From the NCBI GenBank assembly GCA_964444995.1, contig CAYUJH010000001.1:1-26204 (forward strand): 26,204 nucleotides of DNA, in the 5' to 3' direction. The notes under the pieces are model-generated. The model saw nothing but the letters and a program-made list of their open reading frames with translations, ran no database searches and had not been told where the DNA came from. How positions within the stretch are numbered: the first letter of the stretch is position 1; each line of letters begins with the position of its first letter. This document shows positions 2,705 to 10,630 of the stretch, piece by piece. This DNA comes from an uncultured Roseobacteraceae bacterium (GTDB taxonomy: Bacteria > Bacteroidota > Bacteroidia > Cytophagales > Flammeovirgaceae). A program made the position numbers and the translations under genes.

Positions 2705-3838
2705 ATGAGAGCCTACCTAGACAGCGCCGCTACTACCTCGCTCGCTCCCGAAGTACTCGAAGCAATGCTGCCCTTCCTGCGCGACGGGTTCGGCAATCCC
2801 TCCTCTACCCACTCCCACGGGCGCGAAGTCCGCAGTGCTGTAGAAAAAGCCCGCCGAACAATAGCCGAACAGCTCAATGCCTTCCCTTCTGAAATCTATT
2901 TCACCTCCGGAGGCACAGAGGCCGACAATACCTTTCTGCGAGGTACAGTTGCTACGCAAGGCACACAACACGTTATCAGCAGCCCTTTAGAGCACCACGC
3001 CGTATTGCATACCCTTGAAGACCTCGCACATAGAGGCACTATTCAGCTTCATTTTGTAGAGCACGACCAACAGGGTGTCTTCAACCTCGACCACCTCGCC
3101 GCCCTATTGGGTCAATATCCCCATGCCCTCGTTTCGCTCATGCACGGCAACAACGAATTGGGCAACCTCAATCCACTTGCCGCCATCGCCGAACTTTGCA
3201 AAGCACACGGCGCTACGTTTCATAGCGATACCGTGCAGACGATTGGCTATTATCCCCTCAATACCAAAGAGCTACACGCGCAGGGGCTGGTAGGTGCCGC
3301 CCACAAATTCCATGGGCCCAAAGGCGTAGGCTTCCTGTATCTGAAAAAAGGCTTTAAAGTATCGGCATTTGTTACCGGTGGTGGCCAAGAGCGCAACCTA
3401 CGCGGGGGCACTGAAAACACCTATGCCATCATAGGCATGGCAAAAGCCCTCGAACTCTCTTTGAGTACACGCGAAAAAGCCCTAGCCCACATGCGCCAGC
3501 TCAAAGCGCAAATGATAGCCCTTTTACACCAACATCTGCCGACTAACTCGTTTACGTTCCATGGTCTATCTGCCAACGAGGAGAGCAGTCTGCCTTCGGT
3601 GCTGAATGTAGGTATCTCGCACCCTGCAGCTGGTATGCTGCTCTTCAACCTCGACCTACAGGGCATCTCTGCTTCTGGGGGAAGTGCCTGTTCGAGCGGT
3701 TCGCAGGTAGGCTCTCACGTAATCAGCGCGTTAAATCTGCCTGTAGGCTATACACCGGTGCGCTTCTCGTTTAGCAAATACACCACCCTTGCCGAGGTAA
3801 AATATGCCGTAGAGCAACTGGCCAAACTACTCTCCTAA
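2705..3838 (+). CDS. iscS: Cysteine desulfurase, group I (IscS/NifS-like), PLP-dependent
   Basis: 377 aa. YLDSAATT, GNPSS, FTSGGTEADN, PLP-lysine motif AHKFHGPKG, GGGQERNLRGGTEN, catalytic Cys in SGGSACSSGS. Confidence 0.92.
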   Translation: MRAYLDSAATTSLAPEVLEAMLPFLRDGFGNPSSTHSHGREVRSAVEKARRTIAEQLNAFPSEIYFTSGGTEADNTFLRGTVATQGTQHVISSPLEHHAVLHTLEDLAHRGTIQLHFVEHDQQGVFNLDHLAALLGQYPHALVSLMHGNNELGNLNPLAAIAELCKAHGATFHSDTVQTIGYYPLNTKELHAQGLVGAAHKFHGPKGVGFLYLKKGFKVSAFVTGGGQERNLRGGTENTYAIIGMAKALELSLSTREKALAHMRQLKAQMIALLHQHLPTNSFTFHGLSANEESSLPSVLNVGISHPAAGMLLFNLDLQGISASGGSACSSGSQVGSHVISALNLPVGYTPVRFSFSKYTTLAEVKYAVEQLAKLLS

Positions 3839-3923
3839 GCAGGGCGTACACGCATACACCTGCGCATTTGTAGGCGTGCTCAACAGAAGTTGGTGATATT
3901 GAGAAGAAAAAGGTAAAATATTT

Positions 3924-3954
3924 TTTGTATTTTAAAAAAACAGTGCTACCTTTG
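3924..3954 (+). promoter_or_regulatory. Bacteroidota primary-sigma promoter (-33 TTTG / -7 TACCTTTG) driving the rplP-rplQ operon
   Basis: TTTG at 3924-3927, 19-nt spacer, TACCTTTG at 3947-3954 followed by CA. Matches the Bacteroidota consensus TTTG-N19-21-TAnnTTTG. Confidence 0.85.
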
Positions 3955-3959
3955 CACTC

Positions 3960-4107
3960 CCTTATGAGATACTATGCGTATTTAACATGCGCAAAAGTCT
4001 CGTTCCATTACGCATTCAACAATACTGTAGTATATAATCTGAAAAGAAACTCAGCCGTAATTTCGGTTGGGTGATGAGACGTTTTTCTACTTTAACAAGC
4101 ATCTGCT
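3960..4107 (+). promoter_or_regulatory. Structured 5' leader of rplP operon (putative cis-regulatory RNA)
   Basis: About 150 nt between promoter and rplP ATG, with complementary segments GAGAT(3966-70)/GTCTC(3997-4001), TGCGTA(3975-80)/TGCGCA(3988-93), CTCAGCCG(4050-57)/CGGTTGGG(4064-71). Confidence 0.4.
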
Positions 4108-4527
4108 ATGTTACAACCAAAAAGAGTAAAATTCAGAAAAAAGCAGAAGGGCAGGGTGCGCGGAGTCGCACAGCGTGGCCATACAATTTCCTTTGGTAGC
4201 TTTGGAATCAAGTCGCTAGAAGCTGGCTGGCTTACCTCGCGCCAAATTGAAGCTGCGCGTATAGCCCTAACCCGCTCTATGAAAAGAGAAGGTAAGGTAT
4301 GGATTCGCATCTTCCCCGATAAGCCTATCACCAAGAAGCCTGCCGAGGTACGTATGGGTAAAGGTAAAGGTGCTCCCGAGTACTGGGTAGCCACGATACG
4401 CCCGGGCACAATTCTTTTCGAGTCCGACGGTGTTGCCCTTGAAGTAGCAAAAGAGTCTATGCGTCTTGCTGCTCAGAAACTTCCCGTTAAAACAAAATTC
4501 GTTACACGCGTAGATTATAACGGTTAA
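4108..4527 (+). CDS. rplP: 50S ribosomal protein L16 (uL16)
   Basis: [16 protein letters not shown]...[23 protein letters not shown]. Confidence 0.99.
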
Positions 4528-4533
4528 TAAGCC

Positions 4534-4860
4534 ATGAAACAACAGGTAGTAGAATATAGAAACATGAGTGTTGCAGATTTGCACGGAAGCATAGCCGCAG
4601 AAGAGCGCGAGCTACAACGCCTAAAGTTTGCCCACGCCATCACTCCGTTGGCAGACCCCAGCCGCATCACGAAGACCCGCAAGGCTATTGCCACGATGAA
4701 AACCATCCTCAGCGAGCGCGTAGCCGAAAGTCTGAGCACAAAAATCGCAAGTGGTGAAATCACCCTAGAGAACATCTATGCTCACTTGGGTAAAGGAGAG
4801 TATCCTATCACATTAAGAAAATCGAGAGTTAAAAGCCTGTTTGCCCAACACGGTAAATAA
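4534..4860 (+). CDS. rpmC: 50S ribosomal protein L29 (uL29) with about 46-aa C-terminal extension
   Basis: Core aa 1-62 (ELQRLKFAHAITPLADPSRITKTRKAIATMKTILSER) in the syntenic slot between rplP and rpsQ; the ORF continues to 108 aa. Confidence 0.95.
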   Translation: MKQQVVEYRNMSVADLHGSIAAEERELQRLKFAHAITPLADPSRITKTRKAIATMKTILSERVAESLSTKIASGEITLENIYAHLGKGEYPITLRKSRVKSLFAQHGK

Positions 4861-4871
4861 AATAAACGAAG

Positions 4872-5129
4872 ATGGAAGAAAGGAAACGCAGAAAAGAAAG
4901 AATAGGCATGGTAGTAAGCAACAAGATGCAATCTTCGATTGTCGTTGTGGTGGAAAGAAAGCTCAAACACCCTATCTACGGGAAATTCACCAAAAAAACT
5001 ACCCGATTCATGGCTCACGATGAGCAGAACCAATGCCAAATCGGCGATAAAGTTCGCATCATGGAAACGCGCCCCTTGAGCAAAAATAAAAGATGGCGTC
5101 TTGTAGAAATCATAGAAAGAGCGCGCTAA
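4872..5129 (+). CDS. rpsQ: 30S ribosomal protein S17 (uS17)
   Basis: [14 protein letters not shown]...HPIYGKF...HDEQN...[14 protein letters not shown]. Confidence 0.99.
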
Positions 5130-5174
5130 TACCCACTATACACACAAAGGTTTCAAGTTCAAATTTGTTTAGAG

Positions 5175-5543
5175 ATGATACAGCAAGAATCAAGATTAAC
5201 CGTAGCCGATAATAGTGGTGCCAAAGAAGTGCTTTGTATCCGCGTACTCGGAGGTACAGGCAAACGCTATGCCTCTGTAGGAGATAAAATTGTAGTAACC
5301 GTTAAGTCGGCCATTTCTTCGAGCAACCTCAAGAAAGGAACAGTCTCTAAAGCTGTCATTGTGCGCACTAAGAAAGAAGTGAGAAGAAAAGACGGTTCGT
5401 ACATTCGCTTCGAAGACAACGCCGCCGTATTGCTCAACAACAACAATGAGCCACGTGGTACCCGCATCTTCGGGCCTGTTGCGCGCGAGTTGCGTGAAAA
5501 GCAATTCATGAAAATAGTTTCGTTAGCTCCTGAAGTATTGTAG
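5175..5543 (+). CDS. rplN: 50S ribosomal protein L14 (uL14)
   Basis: [17 protein letters not shown]...[10 protein letters not shown]...[13 protein letters not shown]. Confidence 0.99.
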
Positions 5544-5545
5544 CA

Positions 5546-5878
5546 ATGAGTAGTAAAGTAAAAATCAAAATAAAGAAAGGCGATAGCGTGCGTGTAATCG
5601 CAGGAAACCACAAAGGTAAAGAAGGAAAAGTCCTTAAAGTCCTGCAAGAAAAAGGCCGCGCCATTGTTGAAGACACCAACATTATCACAAAACACGTGAA
5701 GCCTTCGGCCAATAAGCCCGAAGGAGGTGTGCAGCGAACCGAAGCTCCTATCGAGTTAAGCAATCTTATGTTGCTCGACCCCAAGACAGGAGAACCTACA
5801 CGCGTAGGACGTAAGATTGACGAAAAGACTGGAAAGTTAAAAAGATACGCTAAGAAAACCGGAGAATTCATTGACTAA
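5546..5878 (+). CDS. rplX: 50S ribosomal protein L24 (uL24)
   Basis: KOW motif [24 protein letters not shown]...[11 protein letters not shown]. Confidence 0.99.
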
Positions 5879-6423
5879 TGGCGGCACCTAGATTAAAAAA
5901 GAAGTACCAGGAAGAGATTGCACCGATGCTTAAAGAAAAATTTGAGCTAAAAACGGTTATGCAAGTTCCCAAATTAGAGAAGATTTCCATCAACCGAGGC
6001 ATCGGCGAAGCAGTTGCCGATAAAAAGTTGGTAGATATTGGCCTAGAAGAGCTTACGATCATTGCAGGTCAGAAAGCTGTACCTACGATTGCCAAAAAAT
6101 CAGTCTCTAACTTTAAATTGCGCGAAGGAATGCCGATTGGAGCGCGCGTTACCTTGCGCGGAGACCGCATGTACGAGTTCTTAGACAGACTCGTAACGAT
6201 TGCCCTCCCGCGTGTGCGCGACTTTAAAGGCGTAAGCGACAAGAGCTTCGACGGACGAGGCAACTACACACTCGGCGTGAAAGAGCAAATCATTTTCCCT
6301 GAAATCTCGATTGATAAGGTGAAAAAAATTGCTGGTCTCGACATTACGTTCGTCGTCAAATCAGAGTCCGACGAGCAAAGTTATGAGTTGCTGAAAGCCC
6401 TCGGAATGCCTTTTAAAAAATAA
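5878..6423 (+). CDS. rplE: 50S ribosomal protein L5 (uL5)
   Basis: [14 protein letters not shown]...[13 protein letters not shown]...[10 protein letters not shown]...[10 protein letters not shown]; TAATG stop/start overlap with rplX. Confidence 0.99.
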
Positions 6424-6437
6424 AAATAACAAGAGAA

Positions 6438-6707
6438 ATGGCTAAAGAATCAATCAAAGCACGTGAGAGAAAGCGTGAAAAATTGGTGGCAAAGTATGCA
6501 AAAAAGCGTGCAGAGCTGAAAGAACAAGGGGATTATTTGGCGCTCGATAAATTGCCCAGAAATGCATCACCCGTGCGCCTGCACAACCGCTGTAAACTCA
6601 CCGGACGCCCCAAGGGCTACATGAGACGGTTTGGTATATCTAGGGTAACATTTCGGGAGTTAGCTTCACAGGGTAAGATTCCGGGAGTTACTAAGGCAAG
6701 TTGGTAG
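6438..6707 (+). CDS. rpsN: 30S ribosomal protein S14 (uS14), 89-aa zinc-independent form
   Basis: MAKES...[31 protein letters not shown]...PGVTKASW. Confidence 0.99.
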
Positions 6708-6760: not shown

Positions 6761-7159
6761 ATGACAGATCCAATAGCTGATTACTTAACGAGATTAAGAA
6801 ACGCCATTAAAGCTAATCATCGTATAGTCGAGATTCCAGCCTCCAATATCAAAAAAGAGATTACTAAAGTGCTCTACGATAAAGGCTACATACAAGGATA
6901 TAAGTTTGTGGACGGAGGAAACACACAGGGGATTATCAAAATCGCCCTGAAGTATAACCCCAAAACAAAACTTTCCGCTATGGTGCACCTAGAGCGTGCC
7001 AGCCGTCCTGGTTTGCGCAAATACTCAAGAGCCGACGGAATGCCACGTGTACTCAATGGCTTAGGCATCGCCATCGTATCCACTTCGCGTGGGGTCATGA
7101 CCGATAAAGAAGCGAGAAGCCTGCACGTAGGCGGCGAGGTGCTCTGCTATGTTTACTAA
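6761..7159 (+). CDS. rpsH: 30S ribosomal protein S8 (uS8)
   Basis: MTDPIADYLTRLRNA...SRPGLRKY...GLGIAIVSTSRGVMTDKEAR...GGEVLCYVY. Confidence 0.99.
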   Translation: MTDPIADYLTRLRNAIKANHRIVEIPASNIKKEITKVLYDKGYIQGYKFVDGGNTQGIIKIALKYNPKTKLSAMVHLERASRPGLRKYSRADGMPRVLNGLGIAIVSTSRGVMTDKEARSLHVGGEVLCYVY

Positions 7160-7176: not shown

Positions 7177-7734
7177 ATGTCTCGAATAGGAAGTAGTCCC
7201 ATTAAAATACCCGCAAATGTTAAGGTAAATGTGGAACAAGGCGTAGTAACGGTAGAAGGCCCAAAAGGAAAACTCACACAGCACATCGCCGCCGATATTG
7301 AGTTTGCACTCGAAGATGGTCAGTTTACCCTCACACGTAAGTCGGATAGCAAACCCGATAAGGCTAAGCACGGTCTGTACCGCTCGCTAATTGCTAATAT
7401 GGTTACAGGCGTAACAGAAGGTTATAAACATACCCTCGAACTTGTGGGCGTAGGTTTTAAGGCCGAAGCGCGCAGTAAACAACTCTTGGAGATGAGCCTT
7501 GGGTATTCTCACAGCGTGTATTTCCAACTTCCCGACGGAGTATCCGCTGCTACAGAAACACTGAAAGGTAAAAGCCCTACGATTACGCTTGAAAGCATTG
7601 ATAAGCAACTTTTGGGGCAAATCTCTGCCAAACTCAAGTCGCTACGGAAAGTAGAACCGTACAAAGGAAAAGGTATCCGCTTCAAAGGCGAGCAAATTAG
7701 AAGAAAAGCAGGTAAGACTGGAGGTAAGAAATAA
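7177..7734 (+). CDS. rplF: 50S ribosomal protein L6 (uL6)
   Basis: MSRIG...VEGPKGKL...HGLYRSLIANMVTGV...EPYKGKGIRF. Confidence 0.99.
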   Translation: MSRIGSSPIKIPANVKVNVEQGVVTVEGPKGKLTQHIAADIEFALEDGQFTLTRKSDSKPDKAKHGLYRSLIANMVTGVTEGYKHTLELVGVGFKAEARSKQLLEMSLGYSHSVYFQLPDGVSAATETLKGKSPTITLESIDKQLLGQISAKLKSLRKVEPYKGKGIRFKGEQIRRKAGKTGGKK

Positions 7735-7743
7735 TCAATAACG

Positions 7744-8094
7744 ATGAAACAGACTAAAACTTTGAGAAGACTGCGCATCAAAAGAAGCATCCGAAGTAAA
7801 ATTTCGGGTACTGCTGCGCGTCCGCGTATGTCAGTCTTTAAAAGCAACACAGGCATTTACGTACAGCTCATTGACGACACAATAGGCAAGACACTTGTAT
7901 CTGCTTCTTCGCGCGAACTTTCCGATGCAAAGAGCGTGAACGTGGCAATTGCTAAGCACGTAGGCGAGAAAATAGCCGAAAGAGCAAAAGAGCAGGGCAT
8001 ACAGACCGTAGTGTTCGACCGTAACGGCTATTTGTATCACGGTAAAGTGAAAGCATTGGCCGATGGCGCACGAGAAGCAGGGTTACAATTTTAA
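7744..8094 (+). CDS. rplR: 50S ribosomal protein L18 (uL18)
   Basis: [10 protein letters not shown]...[27 protein letters not shown]. Confidence 0.99.
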
Positions 8095-8108
8095 AAATCA
8101 CCAGAAAC

Positions 8109-8627
8109 ATGAACGACAAATTCAATAAAAAAGTAAGGCCAACTGACACTGAGTTAAAAGAGCGTGTGGTAGCCATCAAAAGAGTCGCCAAGGTGGTAAA
8201 AGGTGGTAGAAGATTTAGCTTCTCTGCCATCGTTGTAGTGGGCAACGGCAATGGTACAGTAGGTTATGGCTTGGGTAAAGCCAACGAGGTAACCGATGCA
8301 ATTACAAAAGGTATCGACGACGCGAAGAAAAACCTCATCACCGTACCGGTGCTTAAAGGAACTATCCCTCATTCCATGGAAGGCAAATACAGTGGAGGCT
8401 TTGTGCTATTGAAACCCGCTTCGGCAGGTACAGGCGTAATTGCCGGTGGTGCAATGCGTGCCGTACTCGAGTCGGCAGGGATCAAAGACGTGCTTGCAAA
8501 ATCTAAAGGCTCGTCAAACCCTCACAACGTAGTAAAAGCTACTTTTGATGCACTTGCCAAGATGCGCGACCCTCGTTCCGTAGCAATTCAGCGAGGAATC
8601 TCCCTCAATAAAGTTTTTAATGGTTAA
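8109..8627 (+). CDS. rpsE: 30S ribosomal protein S5 (uS5)
   Basis: [21 protein letters not shown]...GTGVIAGG...[12 protein letters not shown]. Confidence 0.99.
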
Positions 8628-8640
8628 CTTTGCAGCCGAT

Positions 8641-8820
8641 ATGCCTAGATATAAGATTACACAAATCAGAAGTACTATCAAGCGTCCGGAAAACCAGAAG
8701 CGCACCATTAAGGCGCTAGGGCTTGGTAAGATTAACCGCACAGTGGAGCTAGAGGCTACCCCGCAGGTAGTGGGTATGGTTCAAAAAGTTATCCACTTGG
8801 TTAAAGTAGAGGAATTGTAA
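8641..8820 (+). CDS. rpmD: 50S ribosomal protein L30 (uL30)
   Basis: MPRYKITQIRSTIKRPENQKRTIKALGLGKINRTVE...GMVQKVIHLVKVEEL. Start re-called at ATG 8641 (59 aa, canonical length); the track's ATG 8620 overlaps rpsE. Confidence 0.95.
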   Translation: MPRYKITQIRSTIKRPENQKRTIKALGLGKINRTVELEATPQVVGMVQKVIHLVKVEEL

Positions 8821-8845
8821 ACGTTATTAAAAAATTAGTAGCACC

Positions 8846-9295
8846 ATGAATTTGCACAATTTAAAATCAGCCTCAGGTTCTACCAAGAACAGAAAGCGCG
8901 TAGGTAGAGGGCAAGGCTCCGGACGTGGAGGCACCTCAACCCGTGGGCATAAAGGCGCACGTTCTCGTTCGGGCTACAGCCAAAAGGCAGGCTTTGAAGG
9001 CGGTCAGATGCCTTTGCAGCGAAGAGTGCCTAAATTCGGCTTCAAAAACCCGAACCGCGTAGAGTATAAAGTACTTAATGTGGACTTTCTGCAAAAAATT
9101 GCGGAGGAAAAAGGGCTTACTCACTTCGACCTACAAGCTCTCACAGACCTCAACCTCATTGGCAAGCACGATAAAGTAAAAATATTAGCTAGAGGAGTGC
9201 TATCCAGTCCTATTTCTATTACGGCACATGCCTTTTCAGAAAAAGCGAAAAATATCATCGAAAATGCAGGTGGCACTGCTACAGTCTTAGCATAA
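8846..9295 (+). CDS. rplO: 50S ribosomal protein L15 (uL15)
   Basis: RVGRGQGSGRGGTSTRGHKG...GFEGGQMPLQRRVPKFGF...FSEKAKNIIENAGG. Confidence 0.99.
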   Translation: MNLHNLKSASGSTKNRKRVGRGQGSGRGGTSTRGHKGARSRSGYSQKAGFEGGQMPLQRRVPKFGFKNPNRVEYKVLNVDFLQKIAEEKGLTHFDLQALTDLNLIGKHDKVKILARGVLSSPISITAHAFSEKAKNIIENAGGTATVLA

Positions 9296-9310
9296 ACCTT
9301 ATTAAAAGGT

Positions 9311-10630
9311 ATGAAAAAATTCATCACAACCATCAAAAACATATTTTCCATCGAGGAATTGCGTAACCGAATCCTATACACATTAGGGTTGTTGGCTATC
9401 TTTCGCTTTGGTTCGTATGTAGTACTTCCCGGCGTGGACCCGAGCAAACTTGTTGAACAGGGAGGCATTTTCGGTATGCTTAATGTATTTTTAGGAGGTG
9501 CTTTTAGTAGAGCCTCCATCTTTGCGTTGGGCATCATGCCGTACATTTCTGCCTCTATCGTGATCCAATTACTTACAGTGGCAGTACCTTATTTTCAGAA
9601 GCTGCAAAAAGAAGGCGAGTCGGGGCGGAAAAAGATTAATCAAATTACCCGCTTTCTTACTATTGCCATCACGCTCGCGCAGTCTTCGGCCTACTTGAGT
9701 ACCACTATCCCTTCCGATGCTGTTCTTGTAGAGCAGTCGTTTTTTATTCTCTCTTCTATGGTAATTCTTACTTCAGGCACTATTTTCTGTATGTGGCTTG
9801 GGGAACGTATTACCGACAGAGGTATTGGAAACGGTATTTCTATGCTCATTATGATAGGCATTATTTCGGGTTTCCCCGGCGCAATCATTGAGGAAGTTGC
9901 TACACGTGGTACAGGAGGCTTCTTGCTCCTTGTCTTAGAGATGTTAGCCTTGTTCTTTATCGTGATGAGTGTGGTACTACTTACACAGGCTGTGCGTCGT
10001 GTACCTATTCAGTATGCCCGTCAGGTTACGAGTGGAAAGCAGACAGTGCGCGGTCAGCGTGCATACTTACCCTTAAAAGTGAACTCTGCCAACGTAATGC
10101 CTATCATTTTCGCACAGTCGCTCATGTTCTTGCCCTCTTTGTTGGCCGGTTTGTTTGCCCAAGACAACGATGCGGCACGCTACATAGCGCAAAGCTTCTC
10201 GGACTTTACTTCGTGGGAATACAATGTAACGTTCGCGATTTTGATTATTGTTTTCACGTTCTTCTACACGGCCATTACGATTAACCCTAATCAAATGGCA
10301 GAGGACATGAAACGTAGTGGTTCTTTTGTGCCCGGCGTGAAGCCCGGCGAGGAAACCTCGAACTATATCAGTTCAATTTTGGATAAAATCACCTTACCCG
10401 GTGCGCTCTTCTTGGCTGTAGTAGCGGTCTTACCTGCGTTTGCCAATGCTGCCGGCGTTAGTTTTAACTTTGCACAGTTTTACGGTGGCACCTCGCTGAT
10501 TATCATGGTGGGGGTAGTGCTCGATACTTTGCAACAAATAGAAGGCTATCTGCTAATGCGACACTACGAGGGTATGATGAAGTCAGGCAAGTTGCAGGGC
10601 AGGTCGTCTCAGAATGTAGCGGTAGTATAA
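9311..10630 (+). CDS. secY: Preprotein translocase subunit SecY
   Basis: 439 aa, multi-TM. SIFALGIMPYISASI, WLGERITDRGIGNGISMLI, LPLKVNSANVMPIIFA, GGTSLIIMVGV. Confidence 0.99.
   Translation: MKKFITTIKNIFSIEELRNRILYTLGLLAIFRFGSYVVLPGVDPSKLVEQGGIFGMLNVFLGGAFSRASIFALGIMPYISASIVIQLLTVAVPYFQKLQKEGESGRKKINQITRFLTIAITLAQSSAYLSTTIPSDAVLVEQSFFILSSMVILTSGTIFCMWLGERITDRGIGNGISMLIMIGIISGFPGAIIEEVATRGTGGFLLLVLEMLALFFIVMSVVLLTQAVRRVPIQYARQVTSGKQTVRGQRAYLPLKVNSANVMPIIFAQSLMFLPSLLAGLFAQDNDAARYIAQSFSDFTSWEYNVTFAILIIVFTFFYTAITINPNQMAEDMKRSGSFVPGVKPGEETSNYISSILDKITLPGALFLAVVAVLPAFANAAGVSFNFAQFYGGTSLIIMVGVVLDTLQQIEGYLLMRHYEGMMKSGKLQGRSSQNVAVV

Follow-up and report, generated by a model that had tools for sequence, protein, structure and literature searches.

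A conserved leader hairpin resembling the S8 site of 16S rRNA is a candidate S8 operator of the detached rplP operon in three families of Cytophagales

In three families of Cytophagales, here coded f1, f2 and f5, the ribosomal protein gene rplP no longer lies next to rpsC, and the gene run that it heads is preceded by a conserved hairpin with the core of the S8-binding site of 16S rRNA. We propose, from comparative sequence analysis of a locus in a genome of family f1, that this leader is probably an S8 autoregulatory operator for its own operon, which would restart from a promoter of its own. The value of the locus lies in this S8 operator candidate, which is concrete and testable and belongs to Bacteroidota; the split itself is an ancient marker of the clade and is not particular to this genome.

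The one S8 operator characterised so far, that of E. coli, overlaps the start of rplE and is narrowly gammaproteobacterial (Fu et al. 2013, PMC3616713). According to a review of 2024, regulation of the spc operon outside the Gammaproteobacteria is unknown, and the phylogenetic study of S8 autoregulation has not advanced (PMC10931766). In a survey that reported 20 new ribosomal leaders, rpsH, rplP and Cytophagales go unmentioned and the spc operon occurs in the reference list only (PMC7247131), and in the full-text literature we found no description of the split between rpsC and rplP or of the leader.

The rplP run and its putative promoter

The window, that is, the whole stretch of DNA analysed, is an entire contig of 26,204 bp (C1) from a MAG that is 60% complete and consists of 258 contigs and 1.85 Mb. 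An ORF of 298 aa on the minus strand (3-896; no Pfam match at E 0.001 or better) runs off the contig start and is followed, on the plus strand, by a phosphoglucomutase-family gene (1251-2651; Pfam and NCBIfam) and by a NifS/IscS-like class-V aminotransferase gene of the cysteine desulfurase family (2705-3838; Pfam Aminotran_5, E 3.5e-65); the top NCBIfam matches of the product of the latter are NifS, DndA and IscS, all under the equivalog cut-offs. An intergenic gap of 269 nt (3839-4107) separates the aminotransferase gene from rplP (uL16; 4108-4527, plus strand; Pfam Ribosomal_L16, E 1.5e-54), the first gene of the detached transcription unit. An earlier reading of this DNA, made from the sequence only, had described a cysteine desulfurase gene directly upstream of rplP and no rpsC remnant in the gap; the Pfam and NCBIfam searches agree with the former, and tblastn of the gap with the genome's own S3 as the query gave zero matches. 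Downstream of rplP, and also on the plus strand, Pfam identifies rpmC, rpsQ, rplN, rplX, rplE and rpsN (4534-6707), rpsH (uS8; 6761-7159; Pfam Ribosomal_S8, E 1.5e-47) and the genes after rpsH (7177-10630), so that the detached run extends from rplP through secY and beyond. We propose the product of rpsH as the ligand of the leader; this gene is the eighth in the run, on the same strand as rplP and with short gaps between the genes. The S8 encoded in the window has retained the S-T-S tripeptide, and its alignment with solved uS8 chains extends over the full length (best 9i5v, E 5e-58). At 108 aa, uL29 (4534-4860) extends about 46 aa past its Pfam domain (residues 7-62).

A Bacteroidota-type promoter-like site lies on the plus strand of the gap at 3924-3954, exactly where the sequence-only reading had placed a promoter, and comprises a -33 element, TTTG (3924-3927), a spacer of 19 nt and a -7 element, TACCTTTG (3947-3954), of the form TAnnTTTG. 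We take a -33 TTTG and a -7 TAnnTTTG to be the sigma-A consensus of Bacteroidota, as in Bacteroides and Flavobacterium. The site shares with such promoters both elements and the 19-nt spacer, in a position that is conserved across the clade, but differs from them in a conserved CA(N)TCC behind the -7 box. The pattern TTTG-N17-21-TANNTTTG has one match in the 26-kb window against a chance expectation of 0.66 per window, so the count alone is not significant and it is position and conservation that carry weight. In 18 of 22 f1 genomes and in one f5 genome (G028), a TTG-N17-22-TAnnTTTG site occurs 148-237 nt upstream of the rplP start codon; rplP thus has a promoter-like site of its own that is conserved in relatives. 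The CA(N)TCC motif directly follows the -7 box (3955-3960 here) in nearly all members of the clade, and may be the initiation region or belong to the leader, 5′ of the S8 helix.

The sequence-only reading had also argued that a unit uncoupled from the S10/L4-type control region needs new regulation. Control by L4 through the S10 leader is known from E. coli but, to our knowledge, has not been shown in Bacteroidota. The argument is sound, and the candidate regulator is the conserved S8-site mimic that follows the promoter.

A leader hairpin with covarying stems

When the regions upstream of rplP are set side by side, the block after the -7 box is far more conserved than the rest of the gap and has the pattern (G/A)(G/A)G-A(A/U)AC-U, a hairpin of 6-9 bp, and (N)AAGUC-(C/U)(C/U). 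In the window this block corresponds to a predicted hairpin at 3966-4001 on the plus strand, which begins about 12 nt past the -7 box and is recognized by a covariance model, by covariation and by its invariant core; G3966-G3968 pair with C3999-C4001 in the outer stem, and 3975-3981 pair with 3987-3993 in the inner hairpin. In an alignment of 21 leaders, 98.9% of the cells of the 13-bp structure are paired, and eight pairs have changes on both sides. The covariance model built from this alignment, R1, matches the window at 3953-4008 with 49 bits (E 6e-13), its only real match there. With 34 leaders from the three families, 98.2% of the cells are paired and double changes are seen in 9 of the 13 pairs (78 cells); 500 shuffles of these leaders never reached any of five measures, and slid controls fell to 30-42% paired. 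The 34-leader alignment was fitted to R1, which favours the structure, and a hand-independent MAFFT alignment showed the same picture. Rfam 15 gave no match in the window at gathering scores, and chance-level hits only between 3800 and 4150 at E values up to 10.

A second hairpin of the leader (4049-4072, plus strand) appears in both the MFE and the centroid folds, about 35 nt before the rplP start. Judged by eye, relatives have a hairpin at a similar position with a different sequence, mostly not terminator-like. The MFE fold of one leader (G000) pairs GUCUCGUU with the downstream GAUGAGAC, a pairing that is not conserved in relatives. When 12 leaders were folded under constraint, with the S8 helix forced, there was no consistent change in the predicted accessibility of the rplP start.

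The internal loop matches the S8 site of helix 21

The internal loop of the hairpin, taken together with the four pairs that show no variation, sets GA(N)ACU on the 5′ strand opposite AAGUC on the 3′ strand. In the numbering of 16S rRNA, positions 639 to 644 correspond to G3968, A3969, U3970, A3971, C3972 and U3973 of the window, and positions 595 to 599 to A3995, A3996, G3997, U3998 and C3999. The pairs U598-A640 and C599-G639 are presumably those of helix 21, an assignment that we take from general knowledge of this helix together with the rRNA sequence of relatives. The equivalents of G639, A640, A642, C643, U644, A596, G597, U598 and C599 are invariant in all 34 leaders and that of A595 is an A in 32 of them, whereas at the equivalent of 641 the leaders have either A (21) or U (13).

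The primary S8 site is a helix broken by seven conserved loop nucleotides, in which the triples (G597-C643)-U641 and A595-(A596-U644) are formed and the invariant A642 stacks on the S-T-S tripeptide of S8; position 641 is treated as N in natural S8 sites (PMC4176348). The leader has each of these features of the S8 core at the level of sequence and predicted pairing: G597-C643 with N641, the invariant A642, A595 with A596-U644, and flanking helices. In the 16S rRNA of two members of the family (G005 and G007), helix 21 reads UUAAGUCAG ... UUGAUACUG, with the core AAGUC / GAUAC. The core of the leader, GA(N)ACU opposite AAGUC, is thus identical to that of helix 21 and is likewise flanked by Watson-Crick stems. 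The leader and the rRNA differ in that the topology is permuted, the loop of the leader closing the end that in helix 21 leads to the long lower stem, and in the base at 641, for which most leaders have A and the rRNA of relatives has U. In the spc mRNA of E. coli, the equivalent of 644 is at +11 and those of 595 and 596 are at +80 and +81 (PMC4176348), so that the order of the strands is the same as in the leader.

The hairpin is confined to the families with the split

R1 was found exactly once in 28 of 31 f1 genomes, that is, of all f1 genomes in the collection searched; among the 21 f1 genomes in which the position of rplP is known, the match is on the same strand as this gene and about 60-200 nt upstream of it in 20. 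In the order-wide sample, R1 matched in f1 (9/9), f5 (8/9) and f2 (2/9), and nothing real was found in 19 other families. A looser pattern and reading by eye add the ninth f5 genome, one f2 genome (G025) and one f2 genus. The f2 genus g38 (L154, L159 and L186) has a longer hairpin, with an inner arm of 40-55 nt, about 500 nt upstream of rplP; the sequence of this long leader is very AT-rich. Neither the model nor the pattern found the motif at about 100 loci with an intact junction, and there was no real R1 hit in 150 genomes across the phylum. Two hits were rejected as chance: that in G125 is partial and lies on a contig other than that of rplP, and that in G248 has no r-protein gene nearby and is devoid of the core. 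The hairpin is present only in the clade with the split, at least two members of which do not have it (G014, with no R1 match, and G130, with no motif in the 700 nt upstream of rplP). Since it is confined to the split families, the split and the leader are coextensive.

One genome bears on the question of which gene the element belongs to. In G004 the cluster is broken again, with rplP to rplE on one contig and rpsN-rpsH-rplF on another (L146 and L147), and the sole match lies about 140 nt upstream of rpsN-rpsH, with none before rplP. With 35 bits and a poor inner stem, the match is a weak one, but its placement ties the element to the S8/S14/L6 fragment and not to uL16; the operator candidate, in other words, tracks rpsH through a second break. 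The genome of G004 has 3.2 Mb and a low GC content, its cluster is in at least three pieces, and non-ribosomal ORFs follow rplF.

A proposed feedback by S8 and its alternatives

In the course of events that we propose, the ancestor shared by f1, f2 and f5 would have undergone a single cut of the S10-spc-alpha cluster, between rpsC and rplP, and the downstream half, from rplP through secY and beyond, would have become a unit of its own, driven by a promoter of the Bacteroidota type. Its transcript would start with the hairpin whose internal loop copies the S8 core of 16S helix 21. Under a shortage of 16S rRNA, free S8 encoded by rpsH of the same operon would bind the leader, and the bound S8 would lower the expression of the operon, an autogenous feedback by molecular mimicry as in the spc operon of E. 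coli. Both the binding of S8 to the leader and the repression by that binding are what we infer from the comparisons described above.

The proposed site has in common with the spc operator of E. coli an mRNA helix with an internal loop that mimics the S8 site of helix 21, the placement of the 639-644 strand 5′ of the 595-599 strand, and its location in the operon that encodes S8. However, the E. coli site blocks translation of rplE, the third gene, whereas the site in these Bacteroidota is at the 5′ end of the predicted transcript, 100-500 nt before the first start codon. The S8-interacting RNA at the rplE start of the E. coli spc operon was reportedly the subject of work by Cerretti in 1988 and by Merianos in 2004. 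At the rplE start in the window neither R1 nor the pattern matched, and an overlap of the E. coli type was not found; nothing indicates common descent with the E. coli operator.

The hairpin lies about 107 nt before the rplP start here, about 500 nt before it in one f2 genus, and 1.9 kb before rplE. Because the site is far from any start codon, occlusion of an initiation region, as in E. coli, cannot apply as such. Bacteroidota are largely without Shine-Dalgarno-based initiation, and an operator at a distant 5′ end would therefore have to work differently from the textbook case; repression might run through attenuation, through decay of the mRNA from its 5′ end, or through a long-range effect on (Shine-Dalgarno-independent) initiation. 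More tentatively, the leader could represent a new class of S8-responsive leaders, a possibility to which we give rather less than even chances, that arose with the break between rpsC and rplP and controls at least 14 genes from the extreme 5′ end by a mechanism other than that of E. coli, for example premature termination or 5′-end decay. As the clade has cultured members, binding and reporter tests are feasible.

It is unlikely, though not negligibly so, that the hairpin is functional without being an S8 operator and that its resemblance to helix 21 is coincidental. Such a hairpin might bind S14, L6, an RNase or a transcription factor, or be a 5′ stabiliser: the site does not coincide with a start codon, the fragment with the motif in G004 encodes S14 and L6 too, and a stable 5′-terminal hairpin alone can protect an mRNA. 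However, S14 and L6 have other rRNA sites, and a stabiliser needs no invariant, asymmetric internal loop. Moreover, the ten invariant or nearly invariant positions are those of the S8 core, the sole free one, 641, is variable in natural sites as well, and the flanking stems vary freely.

We consider it improbable that the motif binds S8 but exerts no negative feedback, in which case it might serve the co-transcriptional recruitment or titration of S8 or be a signal for antitermination or processing of a long operon. Its extreme 5′ position, far from start codons and unlike that of the E. coli operator, would suit such a role, as would the failure of folding to detect a structural switch; yet all characterised rRNA mimics in r-protein mRNAs are negative feedback operators, and no positive case is known (PMC10931766). 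An S8 operator acting by negative feedback is the reading that we prefer for the leader.

Age of the split

We drew 151 genomes evenly from 22 families of Cytophagales and compared the coordinates of uL16 and uS3 searches. In all 28 genomes of the three families (10/10 in f1, to which the window's genome belongs, 9/9 in f2 and 9/9 in f5), rpsC and rplP either lay on different contigs or were separated by at least 50 kb. In the 19 other families (123 genomes), the two genes were adjacent in 121 of 121 genomes among the matches listed, and they were adjacent at 76 more Bacteroidota loci, which include Hymenobacteraceae, Cyclobacteriaceae, Spirosomataceae, Flavobacteriales, Chitinophagales and Bacteroidales. 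In a tree from the concatenated alignment of 13 proteins, those encoded from rplP to secY (46 rows and 1948 columns; four outgroups), f1, f2 and f5 form one clade with an SH-aLRT support of 100 under both LG+G4 and LG+C20+F+G4 PMSF (IQ-TREE), so that one ancestral split event suffices. FastTree attached the outgroup beside f1 with a support of 0.44, a weak disagreement that concerns the root only; for the root, and hence for a single event, we rely on the two IQ-TREE runs. The separation of rpsC from rplP is, then, an old and fixed character of a clade of three families, which it marks as a clean rare genomic change, and it illustrates that a highly conserved bacterial junction may be breakable given a terminator, a promoter and feedback control.

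The sequence-only reading had treated the split as an event of this genome and had called for a survey of related Cytophagales. The survey upholds the split as real, but it also finds it to be the norm in the wider lineage, the very outcome that the reading had named as speaking against its claim, and the view of a genome-particular event is not borne out. A recent split, specific to this genome and accompanied by a newly acquired promoter, as that reading implied, is accordingly very improbable. Flanking genes do vary among relatives, and neighbourhoods therefore keep changing: of 22 f1 genomes, only nine have a cysteine desulfurase gene before rplP, and sdhB is behind rpsC here alone. Nevertheless, with the split present throughout the three families and explained by one change on the tree, and with the promoter and leader conserved across the clade, a recent, genome-specific event is rejected.

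A single genome assigned to f1, G023 (a MAG that is 77% complete), has rpsC and rplP adjacent, on contig C231 (4991-6122). The proteins of this pair show 55-62% identity to the query, as against 72-93% for other f1 genomes, and we set C231 aside as a probable contaminant contig.

The two edges of the break

The sole S3 gene of the genome is on another contig, C207 (3.6 kb), in the gene order rplB-rpsS-rplV-rpsC; the sequence-only reading had suggested locating rpsC elsewhere in the genome, and it is there, with a terminator behind it. On the 3′ side of rpsC, a spacer of 98 nt contains a long A-tract/hairpin/T-tract terminator, beyond which lies the 3′ end of a convergent sdhB-like gene (succinate dehydrogenase Fe-S subunit). 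The S10 half of the cluster thus ends in an intrinsic terminator after rpsC (L032, about 443-404, minus strand), formed by a GC-rich hairpin (dG about -22 kcal/mol) and a T run. It was located by reading the sequence and with a script, a generic scan having missed it through its limit on loop size. A strong hairpin followed by a T run is present within about 50 nt after rpsC in 22 of the 23 split genomes examined, of which only this one has sdhB after rpsC. With the rpsC edge on C207 and the rplP edge on C1, both edges of the break have been seen independently.

The junction between the cysteine desulfurase gene and rplP is shared by both congeners and by six further genera of f1, and in finished or nearly finished relatives rpsC and rplP are on the same replicon at a distance of 50 kb to 3.5 Mb. 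Independent Logan contigs from three DNA runs, which belong to a single stromatolite-metagenome study and probably represent the source sample, cover 3452-3914, 3802-4134 and 3922-4079 with zero differences, the second of them reaching across the junction, whose spanning the sequence-only reading had asked to be checked; its view that the rearrangement is real and the contig not chimeric is upheld by the recurrence of the junction in relatives and by this bridging of the break. That the junction is an artefact of assembly or binning, with a chimeric contig and a cluster that is really intact, is therefore rejected in practice and has next to no probability: the MAG is fragmented (258 contigs, 60% complete) and the coverage in the public runs, themselves probably of the source sample, is only about 3-5x, but rpsC runs into a terminator and a convergent gene while rplP follows a cysteine desulfurase gene, the identical junction recurs in the two congeners and six genera mentioned above, the two genes are far apart on single replicons of relatives, and Logan contigs span 3802-4134.

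In one of the runs (X1), a Logan contig has a match to rplP from 4108 onward that is preceded by 17 unrelated letters; its probable source is a related organism that is present in the same sample and has another upstream region. In G008 (L057), a short ORF resembling bL28 (MAKMCDLTGK...), as judged by eye, follows rpsC and no terminator is seen. The uS3 of the window's genome (L001, 485-1303, minus strand, on C207) is a protein of 272 aa that ends in a C-terminal tail, about 50 aa long and with many G, N, K and R residues, and the length of this tail differs among relatives, in which S3 has 244-290 aa.
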